From: a virus
Lineage: Duplodnaviria; Caudoviricetes
Direction: 5' to 3' (one strand)
Virus record (IMG/VR): IMGVR_UViG_3300026522_000022
Span: 66,611 to 130,610 of that record
DNA: 64,000 nucleotides
A model generated the notes under the pieces. It saw only the letters and a list, made by a program, of their open reading frames with translations. It searched no databases and was not told the DNA's origin. Positions 711 through 53,935 of the stretch are shown piece after piece. How positions within the stretch are numbered: position 1 is the stretch's first letter; each line of letters opens with the position of its first letter. The translations under genes and the position numbers were made by a program.

Positions 711-3167
711 TTAAGCATCCTCTTCATATATTTCAAGCATTAAAATATTTTGTAATTCTGGGTTTTCTTCTAATTTTGCAATTAAAATATTATATTGTTC
801 TTCTGTTAAAGAATTTATATATTCTTCTTTTTGTTTCCTATCATAATCAATTCAATCTTTTTGCATTTTAACATCGCAATTAGCATAATTGGGATATAAT
901 CTTTGAGAAGTAGACTTTAAAGCCAATCTATAAAGGTCATAGTTCGGATCACCTGGTTCACGATTAACACCTTTCATGCATTGGAAGATACCACACATTT
1001 ATACCGTTGTTTTCACAATACTTTAACGCTTATTTAAAAGCCGGATTAGACTATATCATTACTATTATAATATTTTTATAATAGCACAGGGCACTTCGAA
1101 ATTATATTGCTATAATTCTACTCCATATAGGATAGTCGTTTGACCTTATAATATTTCTTTAAAATAATAACCATTAATTGATTGTCCGTCTTGAACTCTT
1201 CTCCATAGAGTTGTAAGACTAATATTATATGCTTTTGCAGCTTTAGTTATAGAAGGAAAATTTTCAATATATTGATTGCTTTTATTATAAACAGCAATAT
1301 CATGTCCTTCTTTATCTCCAATTTTTTTGTTCCTATCATTATAATTATTATTATAAGATACGGTACACCATTCAAGATTTTCAACCCTGTTATTCGCAGG
1401 ATTTTCATCTTTGTGATTTATAATTTGATAATTATTTGGATTAGGAATAAATGCTTCTGCTACTAATCTATGAATAAAAACACGTTTTTTCTTTCCAGCT
1501 TCCGATAATACTACTCTTAAATGACCGTCCGCTGTTACTTCTGGTTTTAATATCTTTTCTTTATAATGTCTAATCCCTGTTTTTGTTTTAACGTTTCTTT
1601 CATTTGCTTTAACGTTTCCTAAATTACTAACAGAATATAAGTTATTATAAATTTTTATCCATTGTTCTTTCAATATGCTTGTCCCTCCTTTCTTGGAGAT
1701 TTTTTAAAGAAATATTATCTTGGCACAGGATTGTCATGCTTTAAGAATAATAAAGTTTAGAGTTTCCCTGTTAGCAAAAGTATCTCAATAGTCATTTCCT
1801 ACTATATTTTACTTTCACACCCGTCTCTGACGGTTCACCCTGTTTTAATTCCCCAGTGGTTATATTTTAGGGAAAATGCTAGTTTTATGAAGCTTACCAA
1901 GACCTTCAATGCTTACTTCAAGAAGTGCCTTTGTAACTAAACGACCTTCTGGTTCTGTGCAAGTACCATAGTTAATTGAAGTGAACGGTCAAATCTGTTA
2001 TCGCAAAGGCTTTTTGTCCTTTGCTTCTTATAGTTTCCTATAAGTTCAGCATATATTTTCACCTTCGCCATTGCGCGTTAAGGGCGGACACTCGTGGACG
2101 AATTATATTTATTCATCGTCTATGCGTTACGGTTCTTAATAGCCTTTCGCAATCTATTAAGTTACCTCGGGGTTAACATATCTAATGACTTAGTCCTTCC
2201 CCGATTTTGCCCGGATTTTCATAAGTATCTCTACTTAAGCAGCCACTCTTTCTAGCTGATTACCACTACGACTTTGAAGAGTATTTAAGTTATGATACAT
2301 GCCTTCAACAGCTTGACGAGTTTCTTTCTCCGTCATATCAACAGCATATTTGTATGCGGCTGGATGCATTTTATATTTTTCATCCATAACAGACATGGTA
2401 TTATTTACATCTGCTTCGAGCCCAGCTTCACAATATTTCATACCATCTAAAAAGTGCTTATAGAAGCTCTTGCGGACGTAAGGAACCATTGTTCAATCAA
2501 GATGTGTAGCTGCAACTCCGCCAAACTGTTGTAGAGACTGAAGCTGAAAAATAACAGCCACAAGCTGCATAGCTGTATTGATACTATTAGCAGGCCGCAC
2601 ATCTGTTTGTCTAGTATTAAAACCATTAGCAAGCAAATCATCAAATGGGATAGAAAGACAATTGTGTGCGCCAATCGCATATGAGTCCAAGTCGTGAATG
2701 TAAATTTCATTATTTATATGGTTTTCTCTAGACATTTTAGACACAAGATGGTCAAGAGCATATTGCTTCATAACTACATTATTAGCCTCACCCCTGCGGC
2801 CACCGAAAGAATATTCATCAACATTGGCATTTTGATTTTGGACGTTTGAAGCTAAAAGTTTTTCTTTAATTGCTTCTTCTGTCTTTTTCTTTCTAGCAAG
2901 TTCATGGTCATATCTATATCTAATATAAGCTTTGGCTTCATCAATATAGCCATTGTTAATTAAACAATCTTCAACTATATCTTGAATTTCTTCAACTGAC
3001 ACATTTTTCTTATGTAATTTTTTAATAGCTGTTTCAATATCATTTAATACTACCGCATCATCAAATTCTTTTCCTAGTTCTGTAAATGCGCCAGATATAG
3101 CAATAGAGATTTTTTCTAGGTTATATTTTACCTTAGTACCATCTCGTTTAACTACTTTTATTCGCAT
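711..3167 (-). CDS. nrdD: Anaerobic ribonucleotide reductase, N-terminal polypeptide (ATP-cone); exons 3167-2254, 1989-1869, 995-711; two TGA=Trp
   Basis: ATP-cone VVKRDG; IYIHDLD..HNC; THLD-W(TGA)-TMVPYVRKSF. Splicing restores GNQL/PFTSINYG and SIFP/CGIFQ. The exons sum to 1320 nt, in frame. Confidence 0.9.
996..1868 (-). mobile_element. Group I intron 2 of nrdD, with an HNH homing endonuclease
   Basis: P1 UUCCCU/GGGGAA, terminal G at 996, in-frame exon junction. Confidence 0.9.
1146..1673 (-). CDS. NUMOD4-HNH homing endonuclease (intron-encoded)
   Basis: YSVSNLGNV (NUMOD4) and HRLVAEAFIPNP..INHKDENPANNRVENLEW (HNH). Confidence 0.92.
   Translation of the reverse strand: MKEQWIKIYNNLYSVSNLGNVKANERNVKTKTGIRHYKEKILKPEVTADGHLRVVLSEAGKKKRVFIHRLVAEAFIPNPNNYQIINHKDENPANNRVENLEWCTVSYNNNYNDRNKKIGDKEGHDIAVYNKSNQYIENFPSITKAAKAYNISLTTLWRRVQDGQSINGYYFKEIL
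1990..2253 (-). mobile_element. Group I intron 1 of nrdD (no ORF, 264 nt)
   Basis: P1 CAGCU/GGCUG, terminal G; the junction restores GNQLPFTS. Confidence 0.88.
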
Positions 3168-3184
3168 ATATCACGCTCCATCTA

Positions 3185-3241
3185 TACTATATTTTGATAT
3201 TTTTCTATAATATATTATTTGAAAGCCACAAAATATAGATT
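3185..3241. promoter_or_regulatory. Two NrdR-box-like sites upstream of nrdD
   Basis: ATACTATATTTTGATA and (reverse) ATCTATATTTTGTGGC resemble acaCwAtATaTwGtg and lie just upstream of the RNR start. Confidence 0.5.
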
Positions 3242-3857
3242 ATACGTTTTTGGCCAAACCTTTATGTATCCCATGAATTTTAATTCAATAATATATCATA
3301 GATACTATTTTAGATGAATCTTTTTCATTATGAAAAATAAGAAAATCCTTAAAATAATCGTTTAAATATTTTTCCATTTTCTTAAAATCTTTATGGTCAG
3401 CAATAATACGTCTAATAAATTCTTTTTTAAGTTTATTTTCACGTTTTATTGACCTATTTAATCTAGTAAAAACATTTGTATCTATATATATAGGAATAAT
3501 AGTATAAAAACTTTGCAGTTCATTTAATTGTTTTAAACTTTTAGGATTAAAAATTCCAATATTTATCATAGTATCGACTATTTGAAATTTATTTGTTCCA
3601 TAATATCAATTATTAAATTTAGTATATTCTAAATACCGTCCAAATATAATATTATGCCCGAATACTTTATTAGAAACAAAATGATAATCTATATCTTGAT
3701 ACTCATCTTTTCTTCGCGGTCTAGTTGTATCGTGTAACAAAAGTTTTGAAGGAATATTATTTTTCTTTAAAAGTTTATGCAATTCTATTGCTAGAGTATT
3801 TTTTCCAGATGCAGATTTTCCTAAAAATGCTATAATTATAGGTTTAATTTTCTTCAT
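3240..3857 (-). CDS. Guanylate kinase-like protein (two TGA=Trp)
   Basis: GKSASGK P-loop, TTRPRR..E..DYHFVS, FNN-W(TGA)-YYGT. Joins ORFs 3606-3857 and 3285-3569. Confidence 0.85.
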
Positions 3858-6800
3858 CTTTTTCTCCCCAACGTTTATTAGTAAACTCTAATGTACCATC
3901 CTCGTTAATCTGAGTAATCTTATAAAGTTGGTGTGAATTTGTCTTTTTATAAGCTTTCGTAAAGAACATATTTCCACGACGAAAACCATTCACCATTACT
4001 TTTGTACCACGAGTAAACCAACCATTTTCCTTTACTTTTTTTGTTCCATCAATCTGAACTTCACTAATCCTTCTATTATACTTTGCATAATAATCACGAC
4101 TAAATTTAACTGTTACAACTCCACTGTTCGGAGTCAAAATACTAATTGATGATTTATTATCATCTTTCGCAATTACAGTCCCAACAATTCTTAATGTTTT
4201 AAAAATTGGAATCCGCACATTGTTTCTCTTAAAGGTATAATCAACAACTGGATCTTCTGGCAAATACTCATATTCATGAATATTATACTTCTCACAATCA
4301 ATATTCTTCAAAACATGTGGATGATAATAAAATCCTAAACTATCCATTTCCCAATCAGACAATGTACCTTCCGCATACTTATCCCATACCTCTTGGAACA
4401 AAGTATTATTCAATTTATTAAGAATATCTTCTTGATGCTGCTTAAAATATGTGCGGGCCGCATCCATTCCCTTATCATAAAGTTTCTTCCAAACTTTCTG
4501 ACTAATTACCAATTCACCATCAATATTTGGTTCAAGTAAATCTACATCAAAAAATTCTTCATAAAAGTCATAATAATTATCTTTTACAATAAAATCATCA
4601 CCACTTTTACAATTTGCTTTTAGTGCTTTATTAAACACAAACAATCTTTTTTGAAACTCAAGATGTTCTGGAATCAAATTTCTTTCCATTAATCCATTAA
4701 AATTTTGAAGTGTAATTCTCTTTTTTGGTTCGCAAACACTCCAAATATATTCTTTCATAATTTCTTCTCTTTTACCAAATGAATCAAATGCTCCACTCTT
4801 AATCAAAGAAATCATAACAGTTTTATTACACTTAACTTTCTGTTGAAAGTCTGTTAAACTTGCGTATGGTCTATTCGCAATAATTTGCTGAATAATTTCT
4901 CCACCAACGCCATTTAATGCCTTCATGCCGTATAGAATCGTGTCTGTTACAACATCCGGTTCAAACATATAACCAGAACGATTAATATCAATCAATGATA
5001 CATCAATGCCGCGATTAATAATATTACCTACTGCTTTTGCAATCTTACCATAGTTTGTACTTGCTTCTTCCTCCAAACCACTGTCAACTCGAAGACAAGC
5101 TGTATTCCAATAGACAGGATTGAAATAAGTTGCGAGATAAATCGTTTGCAAACCAACAAAACTATATGCTAAACTATGAATTAAACTAAAACTATCATTC
5201 ACCCTCAAGTTTCCAAGAGGAATAGACTATCTCTTACCCGCTTTCGCGGGAACACCCATTTCCAATTACGTATCAATAGTAATTGTACTCCCAGTCTCAC
5301 CCAGGATAGTCGTTACAGGTTTCTTAGTGGATATTTTATATTGTTATCTTTATGTGTTTCGCCCTTATTGATACGTCGGACTGTTTCAATAGAGCAATTA
5401 TATTTTTGACTTATTTCTGTTATTGATAAATTGTTTTGTAACAATTCTTCTTTTATGTAGTCTGCTTTATTTTTCTTTCTTATTGGATAAGTAGGATACA
5501 ATCCTTTTCTTAATTTTCCACTATTTATTTTTTTAACAGTAGAATATCCAATATTTAATTGTCTTGCTATGTCAGCTAAAGATAAATAAGATTCAGTTAA
5601 TAATTCAATTAATTCGTCATAATCAGAATCTTTTTTATAATACTGAAAAAGAGGATAATCAATATCTTCATCGTGATAATAAATTCCATGATTAACAGAT
5701 GATATAAAACTTGCACTTATATTATATTTATTTTGTAACTCATAATATTCAATACCTTGTTTTATATCTTCTTTTAATTGTTGAATTTGTTCATTAGATA
5801 ATTTACCTTCATACTTGCGAGATCCACCCAAGTCCATGTTATATCCTTGTCCAAATCCGCAATATGATTTTTTATTATCAATTCAATATTGTTCTCGACT
5901 ATTTATATAATTTTGATCATTACTAGTTCCTTGCTCCAATAAATATATATTAAAATTATTTTCTCCATATTGTCTAATTTTTTTATGAATAAGATCATTA
6001 TAAGAACTAGCATTTTTATTAAAAGCACAAGAACGATGTTCATTAATTCGACGGTTATAATTATTAGTTTGTCCGACATAATTATGACCATTAATTTTAT
6101 TTTCATAACAATATATATAATACATTTCCACCAAGCCTTCCCACGGGATTGCCATCACAAATGGGGTATATTTTATACCCTCATTATATATTAGGTTTCC
6201 CCGTTAGCCAATTATAAAAATTGACCCCGCCGATAAACGGAAAAGGTGTTTAGGGGCAAGTTTTTTGTTTACCCCATCTGCGGCTTAATTGCTGTTTCCC
6301 AAATATACGCACCAAGATTTTCTGAAGTTGCTCTATCCATTACTCTTTGATGAAGTTCTTCAATACGATTCATTTGTTTCTTTGCACAAATTTTTCTCGC
6401 ATCGTTCGCTTCTTTCAATGTAAACCCGCAAATATCTTTGTCCATCAAAATCATCATCATATCTTCTTGCTGTGCGGGCGTTGCATAAGTTGACAGATAA
6501 TACTTTTCCAATACCGCAATATCATGTTGAGTAATATGCCATCTTTTAAGCTCATCATACCAAAGATTCATATTATCCATCATTCGCTTATATCGTTCAG
6601 TCGGCGTCTCTCCACCTTTTTCTGTTGCCATCAGCCGCATACAACTATTACTGTTTGCCATTTCCTTTGGTGTGCGCGGCTGCAATGTTTTAACTGTCTG
6701 ACTTCCAACTTGTGAATCAAACTGGAATAACTTCAAAACATTTCCAGATGCTAATGTATCCCACATTTTATCATCTTGAATCGGCAAAACATCTGGATGA

Positions 6801-8741
6801 ATGTACTTATTATAAACTTCTCGCAAAGTTAATTCTGGTTCAATTTCTTCATGCTCTTGGAGCATTTGAATACACTGAACAATAACATCCTGAATTTCTG
6901 TTACAAGAAAATCATACTTTACATCACCTACATATTCCGCGTCATGAAGTGAATATTGAGTTACAATTGCTCCACTCGTTGCTTTCATAAAACATGCTGT
7001 CTTATATGGGTCATTATCATAAAAATTAACGCCTGACGCATGAATACCACGATGGTTAATAAGACCCTCAATGTTTTCAATAATATTCAAAAGTCCTGGA
7101 TACTTGTTTACTTCATTAATAAAATTCTTTACTGGTTTGCGGCCAGTCTCTTCGTTTCCATATACCAGATCATGAATCGGCCAAACAAATCCTCGCTCAG
7201 ATGGCGCAAGACTTGTCATATACTGCGCAATATCGTTGTCAATTCCATTTGGAAAACTTTCACTACGATAACCACGACATGCTGTTGCAATTGCAGAACG
7301 AGTTGACTCTGTTCCATATGTACAAACTTGAACACATCCAAGTTGTCCGCGCTCTTCACGAATCTTACTAAAAATCTTTTCTCTCTTGGATGGACAAATA
7401 TCAATATCAATGTCGGGGAGTTCTACACGATCTTTATTCAGAAAACGCCAATATGGAAGTTCATACTTAATCGGGTCAAGCTGTGTAATACCGAGAAGAT
7501 AATGATTTAATCCTGCACAAGCTGAACCACGACCCGCGCCTACTGTGCTGCCGCACTCCCAAAAAAGATTAATATAATGCTGAAGAAAGATTGGATAACT
7601 AAACATACAAGTTTCCAACTTATCTCCAATTGTTTTTTGAATATCTGCTTCCTCTTCAAGACGCTGAAGATAAACATCATTATATAAACCAAGTTCTTTA
7701 AGTTTATCTACACAATAATTAACCCAATATCTTTCTTGAATTTCGTCACTTTGATAAAGATAATCAAGAGTTTTATATCCAAGAGAAGATGAAATCTTAG
7801 GATAATTATGAACCTCTACTTGCGGCACCTGCTGTTTGTGTGCCAAATTAAAATTTTCAATCTTATCATAAATCTCTATTGTATTCTTTTCAAGTTCATA
7901 ATAATCAAGGCCAGTATCTTTAAGATTTTCAATTACTTCTTCAGTTGATTGAAGATATGCATACTCATAAAATGCATCGACTTCTCGCTCACCATTCTTT
8001 GAATTAAGATATGCTTTATGAACTTCTCTATCTGCTTTTGAAAGATAATGCGCGTCAGTTGTTACAATAATCTTAACACCAAAATATTGCGCGAGAGCTT
8101 TCATGCGGCTGTTGACAACCATCTGCTCTCTACTTCTTGCTGGCTGAACTTCAAAATAATAATCATCACCGAACACATACTTGCACCACTCAACAAAGTC
8201 AATAATTTGATTATAATACTTTGTTTTACCCTCAATGTTTCCAAGATGTTCAGCCTTGCACATTTCAAGAATACAATAATCAAGTTCTGAACCAAGACAT
8301 GCGGAGGATGCAATTAGATTTCCTCGACCATACTTTCTCACAATACCTTCGAGGTCACTTTTAAGAGTTGGAACCCTCTCCATACCACGGTCATAATAAC
8401 TATTCATCCATGCAATAGACGAAAGTTCACGTAACATTTTATGTCCTGTTGCATTCTTTGCAATCAAGATAAAATGATAATATTTTTGCCCAGTTTCTCT
8501 CGTATCAGTAAGATAAATTTCATTACCGAGTGCTACTTTAAAATCAGGATATTCTTTCGCAATTTGATGACGATATTTATCTATAACCACATGACCGCCG
8601 AGAGACTCGTGATCCGTAACGGCGATCCCCGTAAGTCCAAGTTCAATTGCTCTATCTATAAGTTTTTCTGGGAAGTTAATTGAGTCAAAGTAAACGAATA
8701 TTGCTGTACATTGTATGACTATGCAGCTCCATCCTACCCAA
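3844..8741 (-). CDS. dnaE: DNA polymerase III alpha subunit; needs a +1 frameshift at 8690-8684 and splicing of intron 5196-6270
   Basis: PHP motif HSHTMYS..LL/DSIN..GIAVTDHE, GRGSA, PDIDID, HASG, MG/YSFSLIHS. Segment lengths are in frame after one skipped base. Confidence 0.9.
5196..6270 (-). mobile_element. Group I intron in dnaE
   Basis: P1 GGGGU/GCCCC, terminal G; the junction restores MGYSFS. Confidence 0.9.
5313..6125 (-). CDS. GIY-YIG homing endonuclease in the dnaE intron (TGA=Trp at 5885-5883)
   Basis: YIYCYENKING..YVGQT..R..EH; REQY-W(TGA)-I..GYN; C-terminal HTH repeats. Confidence 0.85.
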
Positions 8742-39641: not shown

Positions 39642-39679
39642 AATGAATCCGTAGCTTAGTCGGTAAAGCAGGTGACTTT

Positions 39680-40289
39680 TAAAATGGGAGCCTTATAAAG
39701 AAATTTATAAGTGAACACCCCGCTAAGTCGGTGAAACCTGTAAAATGGTAATACCGAGCAAGGAGTTTGACAAATGAATAGTAAAAGTAAGGGGAATATT
39801 TCAGAAGCAAGAACATTATTTGAATTTCAAAAATACAATATTCCAGTGTCTCTTCCATGAGGGGATAATGAAAGATATGATATGATTGCTGAATTTAATG
39901 GTAAATTAAATCGTATCCAAATAAAAACCTCAAATGAAGAAAACAATGGAGCAATTAAATGTTATTGCAGAAGTTCTACCAATCATACGACCAATAAAAA
40001 TTTAAGTACGTATGAAAATGATATTGATTATTTTGTATTTTATAATCAACAAAGAGATATTCTTGCTTTGGTGCCGATCGAAGTAGTAGGAAACAATAAA
40101 TCAATTTCACTTAGAATTGAACCTACTAATAACGGACAAACTAAAAATATTAAATTTTTTAATGACTATTCATTTGATAAAATTCTATGTGTAGAGACTT
40201 TACACGGGGAGCCTAAGTCATAAGATAAGGCTAAGATAAAGTCCAGGCCACAAACTACAAAAGTAGGCTATGAAAATAGTAATGGTATG
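39680..40289 (+). mobile_element. Group I intron in tRNA-Lys (position 35/36)
   Basis: Core words TCGGTGAAAC, TACCGAG, GTAGAGACT, AAGATAAAGTCC; terminal G. Confidence 0.88.
39774..40223 (+). CDS. Group I intron PD-(D/E)XK homing endonuclease (TGA=Trp)
   Basis: KGNISE..VSLP-W(TGA)-GDNERYDMIAE..RIQIKT, resembling tRNA-intron endonucleases of the I-Ssp6803I type. Confidence 0.8.
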
Positions 40290-40411
40290 TAATCACCAGA
40301 CCGTGGGTTCAAGTCCCACCGGATTCACCAGTTAAAAATAACTCTTTTCTAATAAAGAATTTTATGATATAATATAAATATAAAAGAGAGAGAAAAAATA
40401 ATTTCTTTTAT

Positions 40412-40487: not shown

Positions 40488-40561
40488 GCCGCCTTAGCTC
40501 AACAGTAGAGCAGTTGGCTCTTAACCTCCAGACGTAGGGGCAGCACCTACAGGCGGTACCA
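40488..40561 (+). tRNA. tRNA-Lys(CTT), atypical
   Basis: GCCGCCT/AGGCGGT acceptor, CTCTTAA loop, CCA. The anticodon stem is mismatched and the T loop reads GGCAGCA. Confidence 0.65.
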
Positions 40562-42493: not shown

Positions 42494-42579
42494 GCCAGTG
42501 TCGCATAGTGGTCGATTGCACTCGCCTTGTAAGCGAGACTCAAAAGAGCACGTCAGTTCGAATCTGACCACTGGCTCCA
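42494..42579 (+). tRNA. tRNA-Thr(TGT) with a long variable arm
   Basis: ctcgc-CTTGTAA-gcgag; extra arm ctc-aaaa-gag; CCA. Confidence 0.8.
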
Positions 42580-42730: not shown

Positions 42731-42822
42731 GCCTCGGTAGTTTAACGGTAGAACGGCAGCCTTATAAGCTGTAAGCGCCAGATTAGCGCGAAATCTTGGT
42801 TCGAATCCAAGTCGAGGTACCA
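42731..42822 (+). tRNA. tRNA-Ile(TAT) with a long variable arm
   Basis: gcagc-CTTATAA-gctgt; extra arm gcgc/gcgc; CCA. Confidence 0.82.
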
Positions 42823-45232: not shown

Positions 45233-46386
45233 GAGAGTATCTAATAAGAACCTAGTTCGACAGATACTTTCAAAAAGGGAATTTCGATTCCTGATACGAG
45301 ATTCCGCACATCTCGGAGCCAAAATGTGCGGCGGAAACGAAACCGTGAGAGCTTCGCCTAAGCCGTGATGGAGAAAGCGGTCGGTCTGCCACACGCCTGT
45401 CGCGTGTGGACGGTCATTCAAGAGACGGGTATCTTGAACGTATTGGCAAACACGTGATATTTGCTGGTTTTAACCATCTGTTACCAATAACAGAAGGCGC
45501 GGGCAAGCGCGAGCAACTTGTCTCGGGAATTGACTCTAGCCCGAATCCAAGTGGTGGCTCCGCAAAGGGTTATCGTCCTAAGTATGACATTAAACTGCTT
45601 CGAGATTTTTCTCGCATACGAGACTCGTTAAATAAGTGTATGCAAACCTTGCGTAGCGCGTCAAGTAAAGCTTCGGGCAACGTGTCATGGTCATAAACAC
45701 GTAAAAATGACGACCCCGGGCGCTTATAGGTTTGGCACCGGTTCAACGTGAAACCTAATATTGCTCTTTGATAAAGTCATATCAAAAACTATGTGAACCA
45801 TGTGTATGCGTAATACCATACGGTCATGGGTATTGAGTCAACAGAGTCGAAATCTATGGGATACTTTAGATGTAAACTTTGTGGTGGTAGGTAACCAAGC
45901 CACAGGAGCGGAGAAAGCCGAAAGGTGCCGCAACTAAAAACTCAATAGCGCCAATTAATTTTGCAGTCAAAAGGTAGTGTCTTGTCGCTTCCGCAATAGA
46001 CGCTCTCTGTGAGAGAAGAACCTAGAACACTCACTAACGGGTGGTGCCGAGTGAGAACTAAGCTAGGAATACCAATTAAGGAAGTTTCCAGTGCGGCTGT
46101 GGTAACACAGCTTATAAGACGAGTTCAACGTGCGAGTAGCCCAATCTGGAAAGATATATTCGATTATAGCCATTTAGAAATGGAAATCTAAATCATTATA
46201 GTCTGAATGGTGGGTGAAAGCTGTCGGGTAAGCAATCCCGCGATGGAACTGGCAATTATGCTGGGGCAAGAAGTTATAGGGTCGCTCCTTATAGCTCAGA
46301 CTTGTCTCCCATGTGACTGAATATTGATGCGAAGCTAAGAGGTAAGGCGAAGGTCTCTTATAGTTTTTGATATGGCTTTATCAAAG
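45233..46386 (+). ncRNA. Very large structured ncRNA region (one GOLLD-like RNA or two RNAs)
   Basis: About 1.15 kb, GC-richer, no credible ORF, behind tandem promoters. A 27-bp helix joins 45766-45792 to 46360-46386. Confidence 0.6.
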
Positions 46387-46938: not shown

Positions 46939-47985
46939 ATGAGGGGAATAGACGTTTCGAGTCATAATCAGTGGCCTTTTAACAACGTCACTGAAACGGC
47001 TTATCAGGCAAGCGATTTTCTGATAGCCAAAACGACACAGGGCACGGGTTATGTTAATCCATATGGGGATAGGGCTATTCAACGCGCTATAGCGGATGGT
47101 AAGCCCTTCGGCTTCTATCATTACGCGGGTGGAAACGACGCGGTTGCAGAAGCGAACTACTTCTACGAGCATTCCAAGAACTACTTCGGGCACGGGATAC
47201 CCGTGATAGATTGGGAGGGCTATCAGAACAGCGCATTCGGGAATGCGAGTTGGGTTAGGGCTTTCGTTGACCGTATCCACGGGCTAACGGGCGTTTGGTG
47301 CATGATCTATGTGAGTGCAAGCGCTATTCCACAGGTTGCCAATTGCGCGGATGATTGCGCGTTATGGGTTGCAGGCTATCCGGTCAACGCGGCATCTTGG
47401 GACGTGCCCAGCTTCAAGTATTCAATAGAGCCTTGGACGGCTTACACTGTCTGGCAGTTCTCAAGCGCGGGCGGCGTGGATAGGAACGTTTCAAGCATTG
47501 ATAGCGCGGCTTGGCAGCGCATAGCGGCGGGCGATGGCGCGGCACAGCAGGTACAGCAACCTACGCAACAGCAACCAGAGCAACCCTATTACGCGGTTAG
47601 GCTTGCCAACGGACGTTGGCTAGCGATGATGCGCGGCTTGCAGGATACCGGCGGTTCCAACGACGATTACGCGGGCATGTTCGGCCAGCCTATAGGTTAC
47701 GTTGCCATCGGCGGCGTTGGGAAATACAGGGCTAGGAGCATCAAGCATGGTTGGTTACCTTACGTTTCAACATACAACCTAAACGACCTTAACAACGGTT
47801 GTGCGGGGGATGGTAGCGCGATAACCGGCTTGGAGATACCCAACAGCGGAATCAAGTATCAGGTACACATCTTAGGCGGCGGTTGGTTGCCTTGGATGAT
47901 AGGCAACATGGATACAGGCGGCTCGAGGGATTCTTTCGCGGGGAACGGCAAACAGATAGATGCTATCAGGATAGCAAGGGCATAG
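46939..47985 (+). CDS. GH25 lysozyme (endolysin) with C-terminal Trp-rich wall-binding repeats
   Basis: GIDVSSH, K.TQG.GY.NP, YHY, DWE, WQFSS, DRN; GC-rich. Confidence 0.9.
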   Translation: MRGIDVSSHNQWPFNNVTETAYQASDFLIAKTTQGTGYVNPYGDRAIQRAIADGKPFGFYHYAGGNDAVAEANYFYEHSKNYFGHGIPVIDWEGYQNSAFGNASWVRAFVDRIHGLTGVWCMIYVSASAIPQVANCADDCALWVAGYPVNAASWDVPSFKYSIEPWTAYTVWQFSSAGGVDRNVSSIDSAAWQRIAAGDGAAQQVQQPTQQQPEQPYYAVRLANGRWLAMMRGLQDTGGSNDDYAGMFGQPIGYVAIGGVGKYRARSIKHGWLPYVSTYNLNDLNNGCAGDGSAITGLEIPNSGIKYQVHILGGGWLPWMIGNMDTGGSRDSFAGNGKQIDAIRIARA

Positions 47986-47997
47986 GAGGTTAAGAGA

Positions 47998-48309
47998 ATG
48001 GCATACGATGATAAGAGCAAGTTCGATTTCAGCGAAACGTCATTTTGCCTATCACAAAATACTCCTTATAAAAAGAAAGCAAAAAAGAAAAAGAATAAAA
48101 AATCAGACCATAAACACGAATATTATAATTGTATTTTAGAAGATGGCAGACACGCATATAAGGCTAATTATTGTATTAAATGCGGTCATATATATACAAT
48201 ATACTTTTTTTTAAATCCTGATGATAAAGATTTAAAAATTTTACCTAAATTTAGAGTTAATGATATTTGGAAAATTTGGAAAGATAAAAATATTCCTTTG
48301 CAAGAATAA
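47998..48309 (+). CDS. Hypothetical protein
   Basis: KKSDHKHEY..CIKCG. Confidence 0.6.
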   Translation: MAYDDKSKFDFSETSFCLSQNTPYKKKAKKKKNKKSDHKHEYYNCILEDGRHAYKANYCIKCGHIYTIYFFLNPDDKDLKILPKFRVNDIWKIWKDKNIPLQE

Positions 48310-48349
48310 AAAATAAATGATATAATAATATTATCGAAAGGGAGAAATA

Positions 48350-48553
48350 ATGTCTTTGTGGAATGAGCTAAAAGAATATGTAGTAGCTGATGAAATAATT
48401 AATGGTGAACTTAGTCATTATTATACAATTCGAGTCAAGACAGATGTTTCTCCTAATAGATTTAAAATTGTTGCATCTTTTAATAGTTATGAAGAAGCTC
48501 ATAATTTTGTTAAAGGACTGCGACTTTTAAAGCAATACAGGAGTGTGGTGTAA
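48350..48553 (+). CDS. Hypothetical protein; its 3' end overlaps the tRNA-Trp 5' end
   Basis: SD and ATG; the stop codon lies in the tRNA D arm. Confidence 0.5.
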   Translation: MSLWNELKEYVVADEIINGELSHYYTIRVKTDVSPNRFKIVASFNSYEEAHNFVKGLRLLKQYRSVV

Positions 48554-48826
48554 CGGTAGCACAGCGGTCTTTAAATATGGAGCTTTTAATTGGAAACAAT
48601 TAAAGTGCAGCGGATGATATCGGTGAACCCTGTAAAATGGCAACACCGAGGGAAGATAAGTTCACCCGTAGAGACTAGATAATCCGCCACCTAAGTCATT
48701 TGATAAGGTGAAGATATAGCCCAGACCACAAACCGCAAGGGTAGTGAAAACTATAGTGGTAAGCAAAACCGTCAACGATGGCCTCCAAACCCATCGGCGG
48801 GGGTTCGAATCCCTCCACTCCTGCCA
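48539..48826 (+). tRNA. Opal-suppressor tRNA-Trp(TCA) split by a group I intron; exons 48539-48571 and 48764-48826
   Basis: Splicing gives gcggt-CTTCAAA-accgt. Acceptor AGGAGTG/CACTCCT with G73 is Trp-type; 7/5 fold; CCA end. Confidence 0.85.
48572..48763 (+). mobile_element. Minimal group I intron (192 nt) at anticodon position 34/35
   Basis: Core homologous to the tRNA-Lys intron; P1 CUUUA/UGGAG with U34-G; terminal G. Confidence 0.88.
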
Positions 48827-52742: not shown

Positions 52743-53935
52743 ATGGCTAACGTAAAGAATTATATGGTGGGGAATGATACTCTTACCATAGAGCAGATTA
52801 ATCATTTTGCAAATTCTGTTGCATATAAGCATTCTAAGATTCGTGTTATGCCAGATGGACATGCCGGAAAGGGCGCTGTAGTCGGTTCAACCATTACCTA
52901 TACTGATAAGATTGTTCCTAATACTGTTGGAGTTGATATAGCTTGTCGAGTCACTGGATTCTGTCTTGGTAATATAGAAATAGATTTCGAAAAGCTTGAC
53001 CATATTGCTCGTCAAAATATTCCGACTGGTTTTAATGTTCGTAATCAGGAGCATGAACTTTCTAAGACTTTTCCGTACGAAGATTTGGTTTGTTGGAGTG
53101 AACTGAAGAATCAGGATCGTCTTCGCAAGTCTATGGGAACTTTGGGCGGTGGAAATCATTATATCGAAATTGATTATGATGATAACACTGAGAATTATTG
53201 GTTGGTTATTCATTGCGGATCCCGTAATCTTGGAAAGCAGGTTGCAGAGTATTATCAGAATATTGCTATAAATGCTAAGAAGGAGCGAATCCAAGAGCTG
53301 AACGCCCGCAAGCGAATATCTATTAATGCTGCTAAATCTGCTGGTTGTATAGATAGTATACAAAATATCGTGAACTATTGGAACGCCCGCATAGCAGAAG
53401 AGCCTGATGATGATATGTGTTATCTTGAAGGTCAGGATATGCAGAATTATCTTCATGATATGCGTATTTGTAATGATTTTTCTAAGTATAATCATATAGT
53501 TATTTTCCAAGAGATAGCAGAAAAGATGGGATGGTAGTGATGGATTATATAACTTGTATACATAATTATGTAGATGTAGATCACAACATCATCCGCAAGG
53601 GTGCTATCGAAGGATATGCGGGCCAGCTTGGTCTTATCCCTCTCAATATGCGGGACGGTGTTCTTATAGTGGAAGCAAAGGGTAATGAAGATTGGAATTG
53701 CTCGCTGCCGCATGGGGCTGGACGTCTTATGTCTCGTGGAGAAGCTCGCCGTTCTCTTTCGCTTTCAGATTTTCAAAATGAAATGAGGGGAATATATTCT
53801 TCTTCTGTTGTTGCAGAAACTATAGATGAAGCGCCTATGGCGTATAAGGATGCGGAAGCTATTATTGAAGCCATTAAGCCCAATGCTAAGATTATTTCGC
53901 ATATGAAGCCAGTATGGAATTTTAAGGCGAAGTAA
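52743..53935 (+). CDS. rtcB: RtcB RNA ligase, in two overlapping frames (52743-53537 and 53531-53935)
   Basis: MPDGHAG, GVDIAC, GTLGGGNHYIE, HCGSR; then HNY, RKGA, PHGAGR, DEAPMAYK. Confidence 0.85.

Follow-up and report, generated by a model that had tools for sequence, protein, structure and literature searches.

An opal-suppressor tRNA gene apparently split in its anticodon by a group I intron in a phage with TGA-rich genes

The split tRNA(UCA) gene and its predicted junction

We analyzed a window of 64,000 nucleotides that forms the right-hand half of a phage contig of 130,610 bp (genome ~90% complete). A split gene for a tRNA with the predicted anticodon UCA lies at 48539-48826 of the window, with all of its parts on the plus strand. 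Exon 1 (48539-48571, 33 nt) carries the 5' strand of the acceptor stem (AGGAGTG), a D arm (GUGU/AACGGUA/GCAC), the 5' strand of the anticodon stem (GCGGU), and loop bases C32-U33-U34. It is followed by a 192-nt IC3-like group I intron without an ORF (48572-48763), recognized by a match to the Rfam group I model RF00028 and by alignment with 43 other phage tRNA introns. Exon 2 (48764-48826) resumes the loop with C35-A36-A37-A38 and continues with the 3' strand of the anticodon stem (ACCGU), a long variable arm, a T arm (GGGGG/UUCGAAU/CCCUC), the 3' strand of the acceptor stem (CACUCCU), G73, and an encoded CCA. In the fold given by ARAGORN, the 26-nt variable arm (48773-48798) has a 6-bp stem (CGAUGG/CCAUCG) and a loop, C-CUCCAAA-C, at 48782-48790. 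When the intron is removed, ARAGORN folds the remaining 96 nt into a cloverleaf whose anticodon is UCA, and A1-U72, G2-C71, G3-C70, and G73 are all present. A preliminary description of 48539-48826 had given the exon end GCGGT-CTT, a 192-nt intron ending at G48763, and the exon start CAAA-ACCGT, and all of these coordinates hold. About 210 nt upstream of the tRNA, a sigma-70-like promoter is predicted on the same strand from a consensus scan only (48297-48326; TTGCAA, 17 nt, and a TG-extended TATAAT, with 10/12 matches).

The match to RF00028 spans 48561-48744 and scores 41.9 bits, with an E value of 2.3e-9 for a 551-nt region. The Infernal check proposed in the preliminary description thus recovers the intron, but with a score below the model's gathering threshold of 50 bits; homologous introns at three IMG/VR loci (L005, L008, and L014) score 62.6-65.3 bits and exceed it. 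A 29-nt stretch of the P4-P6 core was found in 101 IMG/VR contigs, and almost all of the matches that ARAGORN could place are within tRNA genes. We aligned 44 phage tRNA introns, including that of the window, and found compensatory changes in 29 of 47 consensus pairs. The RNAalifold consensus recovers P1, P2, P3, P4-P6, P8, and P9; P7, which is part of the pseudoknot, is not predicted. All 60 invariant columns of the alignment and most of the 57 nearly invariant ones are retained in the window's intron. Its closest relative, a 194-nt intron at the identical insertion site in locus L232, shares ~90% identity with it, and the differences between the two are compensatory, affecting one pair of P2 and, in the GAAA-capped hairpin near the 3' end (P9.1), each of its four pairs. 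The core (CGGUGAAACC, GUAGAGACUAGA, and AAGAUAUAGUCC) presumably resembles that of the Azoarcus pre-tRNA-Ile ribozyme, subgroup IC3.

The rule that U precedes the intron and G ends it, together with a 7-nt anticodon loop, leaves a single split, CTT+CAAA, with anticodon UCA. As read from the sequence, the internal guide UG|GAG (48578-48582) would pair through GAG with C32-U33-U34 to form P1 (C48569-G48582, U48570-A48581, and U48571.G48580) and through UG with the first two bases of exon 2 to form P10 (C48764-G48579 and A48765-U48578). U48571.G48580 is the U-G pair at U34 that had been proposed earlier; U.G is found at the 5' splice site in 43 of the 44 introns, and the terminal guanosine (omega G, here G48763) is G in all 44. 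The splice column is fixed across the alignment and corresponds to U34, where tRNA-Leu(UAA) introns are classically inserted. The guide base just 5' of GAG changes together with base +1 of exon 2, in what amount to few independent events: U/A in 36 Leu introns, G/C in 3 UCA introns, C/G in Ser(UGA), and G/U in Lys. Intronless tRNA(UCA) genes in related phages (L216, L131, and L132) read GCGGUCUUCAAAACCGU uninterrupted, in agreement with the ligated loop CUUCAAA of the preliminary description, the sole one that fits group I rules. The L216 homologue (6849-6942, minus strand) has a 5' half identical to exon 1 of the window, and the L131 gene scores 37.4 bits on RF00005 (threshold 29). L131 and L132 were found via the neighboring RtcB gene; tRNAs were absent from a further relative, L133.

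Two other splits were considered and rejected: (i) the ARAGORN intron-mode call "tRNA-Stop(tta)", with the intron at 37/38, has no U before the intron and no G at its end, and intronless orthologues read UCA; and (ii) a splice after U48572, giving an 8-nt loop CUUUCAAA, is excluded by the fixed splice column of the Leu introns, by P10, and by the intronless orthologues. At the level of sequence, the gene is confirmed as a split tRNA with predicted anticodon UCA and junction CUU|CAAA. The insert appears to be a group I intron beyond chance resemblance, because 43 other introns align with it with covariation and intronless orthologues hold the predicted junction uninterrupted. The earlier placement of a group I intron in the anticodon loop is thus backed both by the RF00028 E value and by the covarying alignment of 44 introns.

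If the intron follows established group I chemistry, a precursor would be transcribed first, the guide GAG would pair with C32-U33-U34, and a guanosine would attack after the U34.G wobble. The freed exon 1 would then attack after G48763, with the 2-bp P10 holding exon 2, and ligation would yield the 96-nt tRNA with the loop CUUCAAA. The expected products are a ligated junction GCGGUCUU-CAAAACCGU and an excised intron of 192 nt.

TGA as a tryptophan codon

Read with the standard code, the left half of the contig breaks into fragments; with TGA as a sense codon it holds ORFs of 2,924, 2,363, 1,135, and 1,097 codons, each with 11-25 TGA codons. The 31 genes of this left arm (16,665 codons) contain 126 TGA and 80 TGG codons. 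TGG alone amounts to 0.48% of these codons and TGA plus TGG to 1.24%, compared with 1.36% TGG in 22 TGA-free core genes of the window. No TGA was found among the stop codons of 53 ORFs (TAA 38, TAG 15). The TGA codons of the window cluster in homing endonuclease ORFs (25 TGA versus 5 TGG), a Dam-like methylase, and a ThyX-like gene.

Alignments with homologues point to the amino acid. Close database relatives are already translated with TGA as W, so only distant homologues are independent evidence for tryptophan. At each of the four TGA positions of a glycosyltransferase, 85-119 of 120 homologues carry W. All four residues are W in five named or long-contig homologues, one of which is labelled Acholeplasmatales, and in four others three are W and the remaining one is Y. 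In the ThyX-like protein, W dominates among homologues at four of five TGA positions. We conclude from these sequence comparisons that the phage appears to read TGA as tryptophan.

No other tRNA with a stop-reading anticodon was found by ARAGORN or the Rfam tRNA model in the sequence scanned; the genome is ~90% complete, so a further suppressor could lie in the missing part. The preliminary description had named this tRNA as the driver of a UGA = Trp code, and the 126 in-frame TGA codons, their alignment with conserved W, and the finding of a single UCA tRNA in the ~90%-complete genome all speak for it. Splicing would then be obligatory for the code change in this phage. Neither a TrpRS (PF00579) nor an RF-1 domain (PF00472) was found in the ~90%-complete genome. 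Because the phage encodes no TrpRS, the spliced tRNA would have to be charged by that of the host; once charged, it would read TGA in late and structural genes, in a phage sigma-factor gene, and in homing endonuclease genes.

Several individual genes deserve mention. The sigma-factor gene (L001:7078-8184, in the same genome but outside the window; phrog_5767, E 3e-40) holds 7 in-frame TGA codons, so its synthesis should depend on the spliced suppressor tRNA. The endolysin gene (46939-47985) has 14 TGG codons and no TGA; in published accounts, the lysis genes of recoded phages are reportedly preferentially recoded. An IMG/VR search with the endolysin as neighbor gave only unrelated contigs of ~40 kb. 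The region of NrdD, the anaerobic ribonucleotide reductase (2235-6203), is broken up and interleaved with TGA-bearing GIY-YIG endonuclease ORFs, and probably contains introns. The RtcB RNA ligase (52743-53935) is spread over two ORFs that overlap but differ in frame (52743-53537 and 53531-53935) and is one protein of 395-400 aa in relatives; a frameshift, an error of assembly, or programmed recoding may account for the split.

Competing readings of the intron and the tRNA

Three lines of evidence bear on what the intron is. First, near-identical tRNA(UCA) genes occur with and without it (L281 versus L291, and the window versus L216). Second, the same intron family is present in sense tRNAs: Leu(UAA), Lys(UUU), Glu(UUC), Ser(UGA), and Asn. 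Third, ORFs for PD-(D/E)XK endonucleases (PF11645) were detected in 6 of 7 long UCA introns tested. These ORFs contain 7-12 in-frame TGA codons and would hence need the spliced tRNA for their own translation. The window itself holds a second example, a split tRNA-Lys(UUU) gene at 39645-40330 (exons 39645-39679 and 40290-40330) that ARAGORN misses with default settings; its homologous group I intron of 610 nt encodes a PD-(D/E)XK homing endonuclease at 39774-40223 (PF11645, E 4e-32; PDB 2OST, E 5e-7). Because the intron is present or absent in near-identical tRNAs, resides in sense tRNAs, and carries homing endonuclease genes in its relatives, the evidence favors a mobile selfish element. Overall, it is likely, and we hold it with good confidence, that the locus encodes a phage opal-suppressor tRNA(UCA) specifying tryptophan, split between U34 and C35 by a compact self-splicing group I intron of the Azoarcus/tRNA-Leu(UAA) type, and that this intron is better understood as a mobile selfish element than as a purpose-built regulator.

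We note two observations on relatives. In the related phage L131, a PD-(D/E)XK ORF (6455-6951) runs right up to the 5' end of the tRNA(UCA) gene, which is intronless there. Among phage "tRNA-Leu(UAA)" genes with an intron, many (L014, L024, L027, L030, and others) have a mature length of only 73-75 nt and look class-I-like, which is unusual for bacterial tRNA-Leu.

The preliminary description had suggested that splicing acts as a timer or a GTP/Mg sensor, that is, as a selected gate that times the TGA-rich late genes through folding time, GTP, or Mg2+. Guanosine and Mg2+ are required by every group I intron, so this need says nothing specific, and the intron has no feature specific to sensing. 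All suppressor supply of this phage would pass through splicing, and a sigma factor with 7 TGA codons is among the targets, making a cascade conceivable, yet members of this intron family also interrupt tRNAs for Leu, Lys, Glu, Ser, and Asn, where there is nothing to gate. Most verified loci (40 of 56) have the intron, a majority that could reflect selection and not homing alone; however, homing endonuclease ORFs are common and account for this prevalence without a benefit to the phage, and the pairs L281/L291 and L216/window show that the intron is optional. A predicted host-type promoter upstream of the tRNA and the published precedent of theta ribozymes linked to suppressor tRNAs (PMC10879173) are further points for a regulatory role, but on the evidence we consider it unlikely and do not retain the timer, although splicing may affect timing as a side effect.

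Read as a mobile selfish element, the intron would also have a simple reason to be where it is. Every invaded tRNA seen, except a single Asn(GUU) case, has the C32-U33-U34 loop with which the guide GAG pairs. Because invaded tRNAs share this loop, we infer that the C34-to-U34 change which makes a suppressor also makes the intron's target. The CCA-to-UCA change would in this way create the CUU/U34.G splice site that the family needs, so the intron can live in a tRNA(UCA) gene.

We next consider what the tRNA is charged with. G73 is present in 33 of 33 unique members of the tRNA(UCA) family, and at 1-72 there is an A-U pair in 26 of them and a G.U pair in 7. The G73 discriminator and a weak 1-72 pair (A1-U72) are Trp identity elements for the TrpRS of E. 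coli and B. subtilis. The bacterial Trp body described earlier is therefore right for the acceptor stem and discriminator but not for the remainder, since the anticodon is UCA instead of CCA and the variable region is 26 nt instead of 4-5 nt. The 3' half is strongly Trp-like, because the pattern of its variable and T arms matched ordinary tRNA-Trp(CCA) in 99 of 101 cases. The CCA anticodon is absent from the anticodon loop, and a CCA triplet is found in the CUCCAAA-type loop of the variable arm: UCCA is conserved there in all 33 unique members while the stems of the arm covary, and the commonest predicted loop is exactly CUCCAAA (15 of 33). On this comparison, the variable-arm loop appears to copy the anticodon loop of normal tRNA-Trp(CCA), and the arm probably gives the host TrpRS its expected anticodon. 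Charging by TrpRS is not certain, because normal tRNA-Trp has neither U34 nor a long variable arm.

Similar arms are found on other tRNAs. Amber suppressors tRNA(CUA) with Gln-like acceptor ends (L143:4235-4325, minus strand; also L219, L228, L233, L234, L239, L449, L451, L453, L455, L464, L484, and L490) have a D arm and anticodon stem nearly those of the window's UCA tRNA. Their variable loops, CUCUGAA, CUUUGAA, or UUCUGAG on seven distinct arms with covarying stems, contain the Gln anticodons CUG/UUG. A 92-nt tRNA-Ile(UAU) in the window (42731-42822) has a variable arm GCGC/GCGC with the 7-nt loop CAGAUUA, in which the normal Ile anticodon GAU stands at the anticodon position; two more versions with other stems occur in IMG/VR (L407 and L430), and the loops read CAGAUUA or CUGAUUA. 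The 86-nt tRNA-Thr(UGU) of the window (42494-42579) has a short extra hairpin in its variable region (CUC-AAAA-GAG) that copies no anticodon.

It could instead be argued that tRNA(UCA) is a class II tRNA, Ser-, Leu-, or Sec-like, that escapes charging with tryptophan and reads TGA as another amino acid. The 26-nt variable arm and a discriminator G73 as in tRNA-Ser would fit this, and ARAGORN labels the spliced tRNA tRNA-SeC, but from the anticodon alone; its acceptor/T arrangement is 7/5, not the 8/5 of bacterial tRNA-Sec, A1-U72 with G73 is Trp-type, and the Trp anticodon sequence is in the variable loop of all 33 family members. TGA positions, moreover, match conserved Trp and not Ser or Leu, and the TGA plus TGG frequency is close to the Trp frequency of unrecoded genes (1.24% versus 1.36%), making a class II identity very improbable. 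Least credible of all is a dead intron in a pseudogene, with TGA decoded by a suppressor of the host or by a tRNA encoded in the 10% of the genome that is missing from the sequence: the subthreshold RF00028 score and ~90% completeness would allow it, but the intron keeps all 60 invariant and most of the 57 nearly invariant columns and differs from L232 by compensatory changes, the exons are intact with exon 1 exactly that of intronless homologues, and 126 left-arm TGA codons imply strong selection for a working suppressor.

Occurrence in other phages and relation to known systems

We scanned IMG/VR twice, once for the uninterrupted junction and once for the intron 3' end joined to exon 2, and checked each match for pairing in the acceptor stem, anticodon stem, and T arm. 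The search for intron-split UCA tRNAs in other phages, which the preliminary description had called for, gave 40 split loci (window included) and 16 intronless ones, 56 verified loci in all; because the anticodon stem was fixed in the scan patterns, the numbers apply to a single clade. The verified loci comprise 33 different mature sequences and 27 different introns, which are 192-707 nt long. In the GenBank phage collection only the neighboring tRNA-Cys was matched, with no relative of the intron or of tRNA(UCA).

Standard tools were expected to overlook such genes, and the two applied here do. ARAGORN at default settings and the Rfam tRNA model both miss the window's gene, ARAGORN at default settings found 0 split genes in 39 IMG/VR loci re-scanned, and detection of group I introns is outside the design of tRNAscan-SE 2.0 according to its own paper (PMC8450103). 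Borges 2021 (10.1101/2021.08.26.457843), a preprint that used tRNAscan-SE, reported that only 35% of code-4 phage genomes had a TGA suppressor, and Yutin 2021 (PMC7886860) also noted the mismatch, with most TGA-recoded genomes having no visible suppressor tRNA. The earlier suggestion of hidden suppressors thus has real support in the 40 split loci and the 0/39 result, and intron-split tRNAs may be the reason why some recoded phages appear to have no suppressor.

A broader proposal covers the whole clade: (i) most of its suppressor tRNA genes would be hidden from standard annotation by a mobile anticodon intron that invaded only after the CCA-to-UCA change made a CUU/U34 target; (ii) the TGA-written endonuclease would be expressed only with the product of its host gene; and (iii) decoy anticodon loops (Trp CCA, Gln CUG/UUG, and Ile GAU) would keep host charging. 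Taken as a whole, this proposal is possible but tentative, and we incline slightly against it.

Among known systems, the introns of cyanobacterial and plastid tRNA-Leu(UAA) and of Azoarcus tRNA-Ile(CAU) share the insertion after U34 of a C-U-U loop with that of the window, and the tRNA-Leu(UAA) and Azoarcus IC3 introns also share the anticodon-loop P1, the splice-site U.G, the terminal G, and a compact core of ~200 nt. The window's intron aligns directly with phage tRNA-Leu(UAA) introns. It differs from Leu introns in a P10 guide base altered to match C35, and from bacterial tRNA-Leu and tRNA-Ile introns in its host gene, a phage-borne stop-codon suppressor. The Synechocystis tRNA-fMet intron with I-Ssp6803I (PDB 2OST) combines an anticodon-loop intron and a PD-(D/E)XK endonuclease in the same way as the window's Lys intron and the homologues of its UCA intron; the UCA copy of the window has no ORF. 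In contrast to the I-Ssp6803I system, phage UCA-intron ORFs with 7-12 TGA codons would be translatable only once the interrupted suppressor is available.

Suppressor tRNAs of stop-codon-recoded phages were reportedly treated by Ivanova in 2014. The late-gene TGA-to-Trp code and the phage tRNA(UCA) of the window are shared with the recoded-phage suppressors of Yutin 2021 (PMC7886860) and Borges 2021 (10.1101/2021.08.26.457843), and the window's homing endonuclease ORFs match the preference for TGA that the latter reports for homing endonucleases of Agate phages. The intron-split form differs from these published suppressors; no description of an intron-split phage suppressor tRNA was found in the literature searched. 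Theta (HDV-like) ribozymes (PMC10879173) likewise tie a self-processing ribozyme to suppressor tRNA maturation in recoded phages, but they flank the tRNA and cut its end, whereas the group I intron here lies inside the anticodon and would be excised with exon ligation.

Bacteria that use code 4, such as Mycoplasma and relatives, have a tRNA-Trp(UCA) that reads UGA and UGG as Trp. The UCA anticodon is shared with these, but the bacterial tRNA is class I with a short variable loop and a co-adapted TrpRS, whereas that of the phage has a 26-nt arm with a copy of the CCA loop and no TrpRS gene was found with it.

For one clade, then, the locus gives a checkable answer to why most TGA-recoded genomes show no suppressor tRNA, and a phage code switch would hang on a ribozyme reaction amenable to in vitro assay. 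A 2014 review placed all phage introns then known in protein-coding genes (PMC3984707); contrary to this, phage tRNA genes do host group I introns, and intron-aware tRNA models are needed to annotate recoded phages. Genetic-code engineering could draw on this family for natural UGA suppressors that carry an unusual extra arm.

Other RNA genes were noted in passing. A tRNA-like gene at 40488-40558 of the window scores 40.8 bits with Rfam and is missed by ARAGORN; its anticodon stem is weak and its T loop, GGCAGCA, is unusual. In L131, an 80-nt stretch between tRNAs (8129-8208) scores 72 bits on the tmRNA model. Finally, a full-length ROOL RNA (RF03087, 347.6 bits) lies inside the phage tRNA cluster at 45774-46375 of the window.
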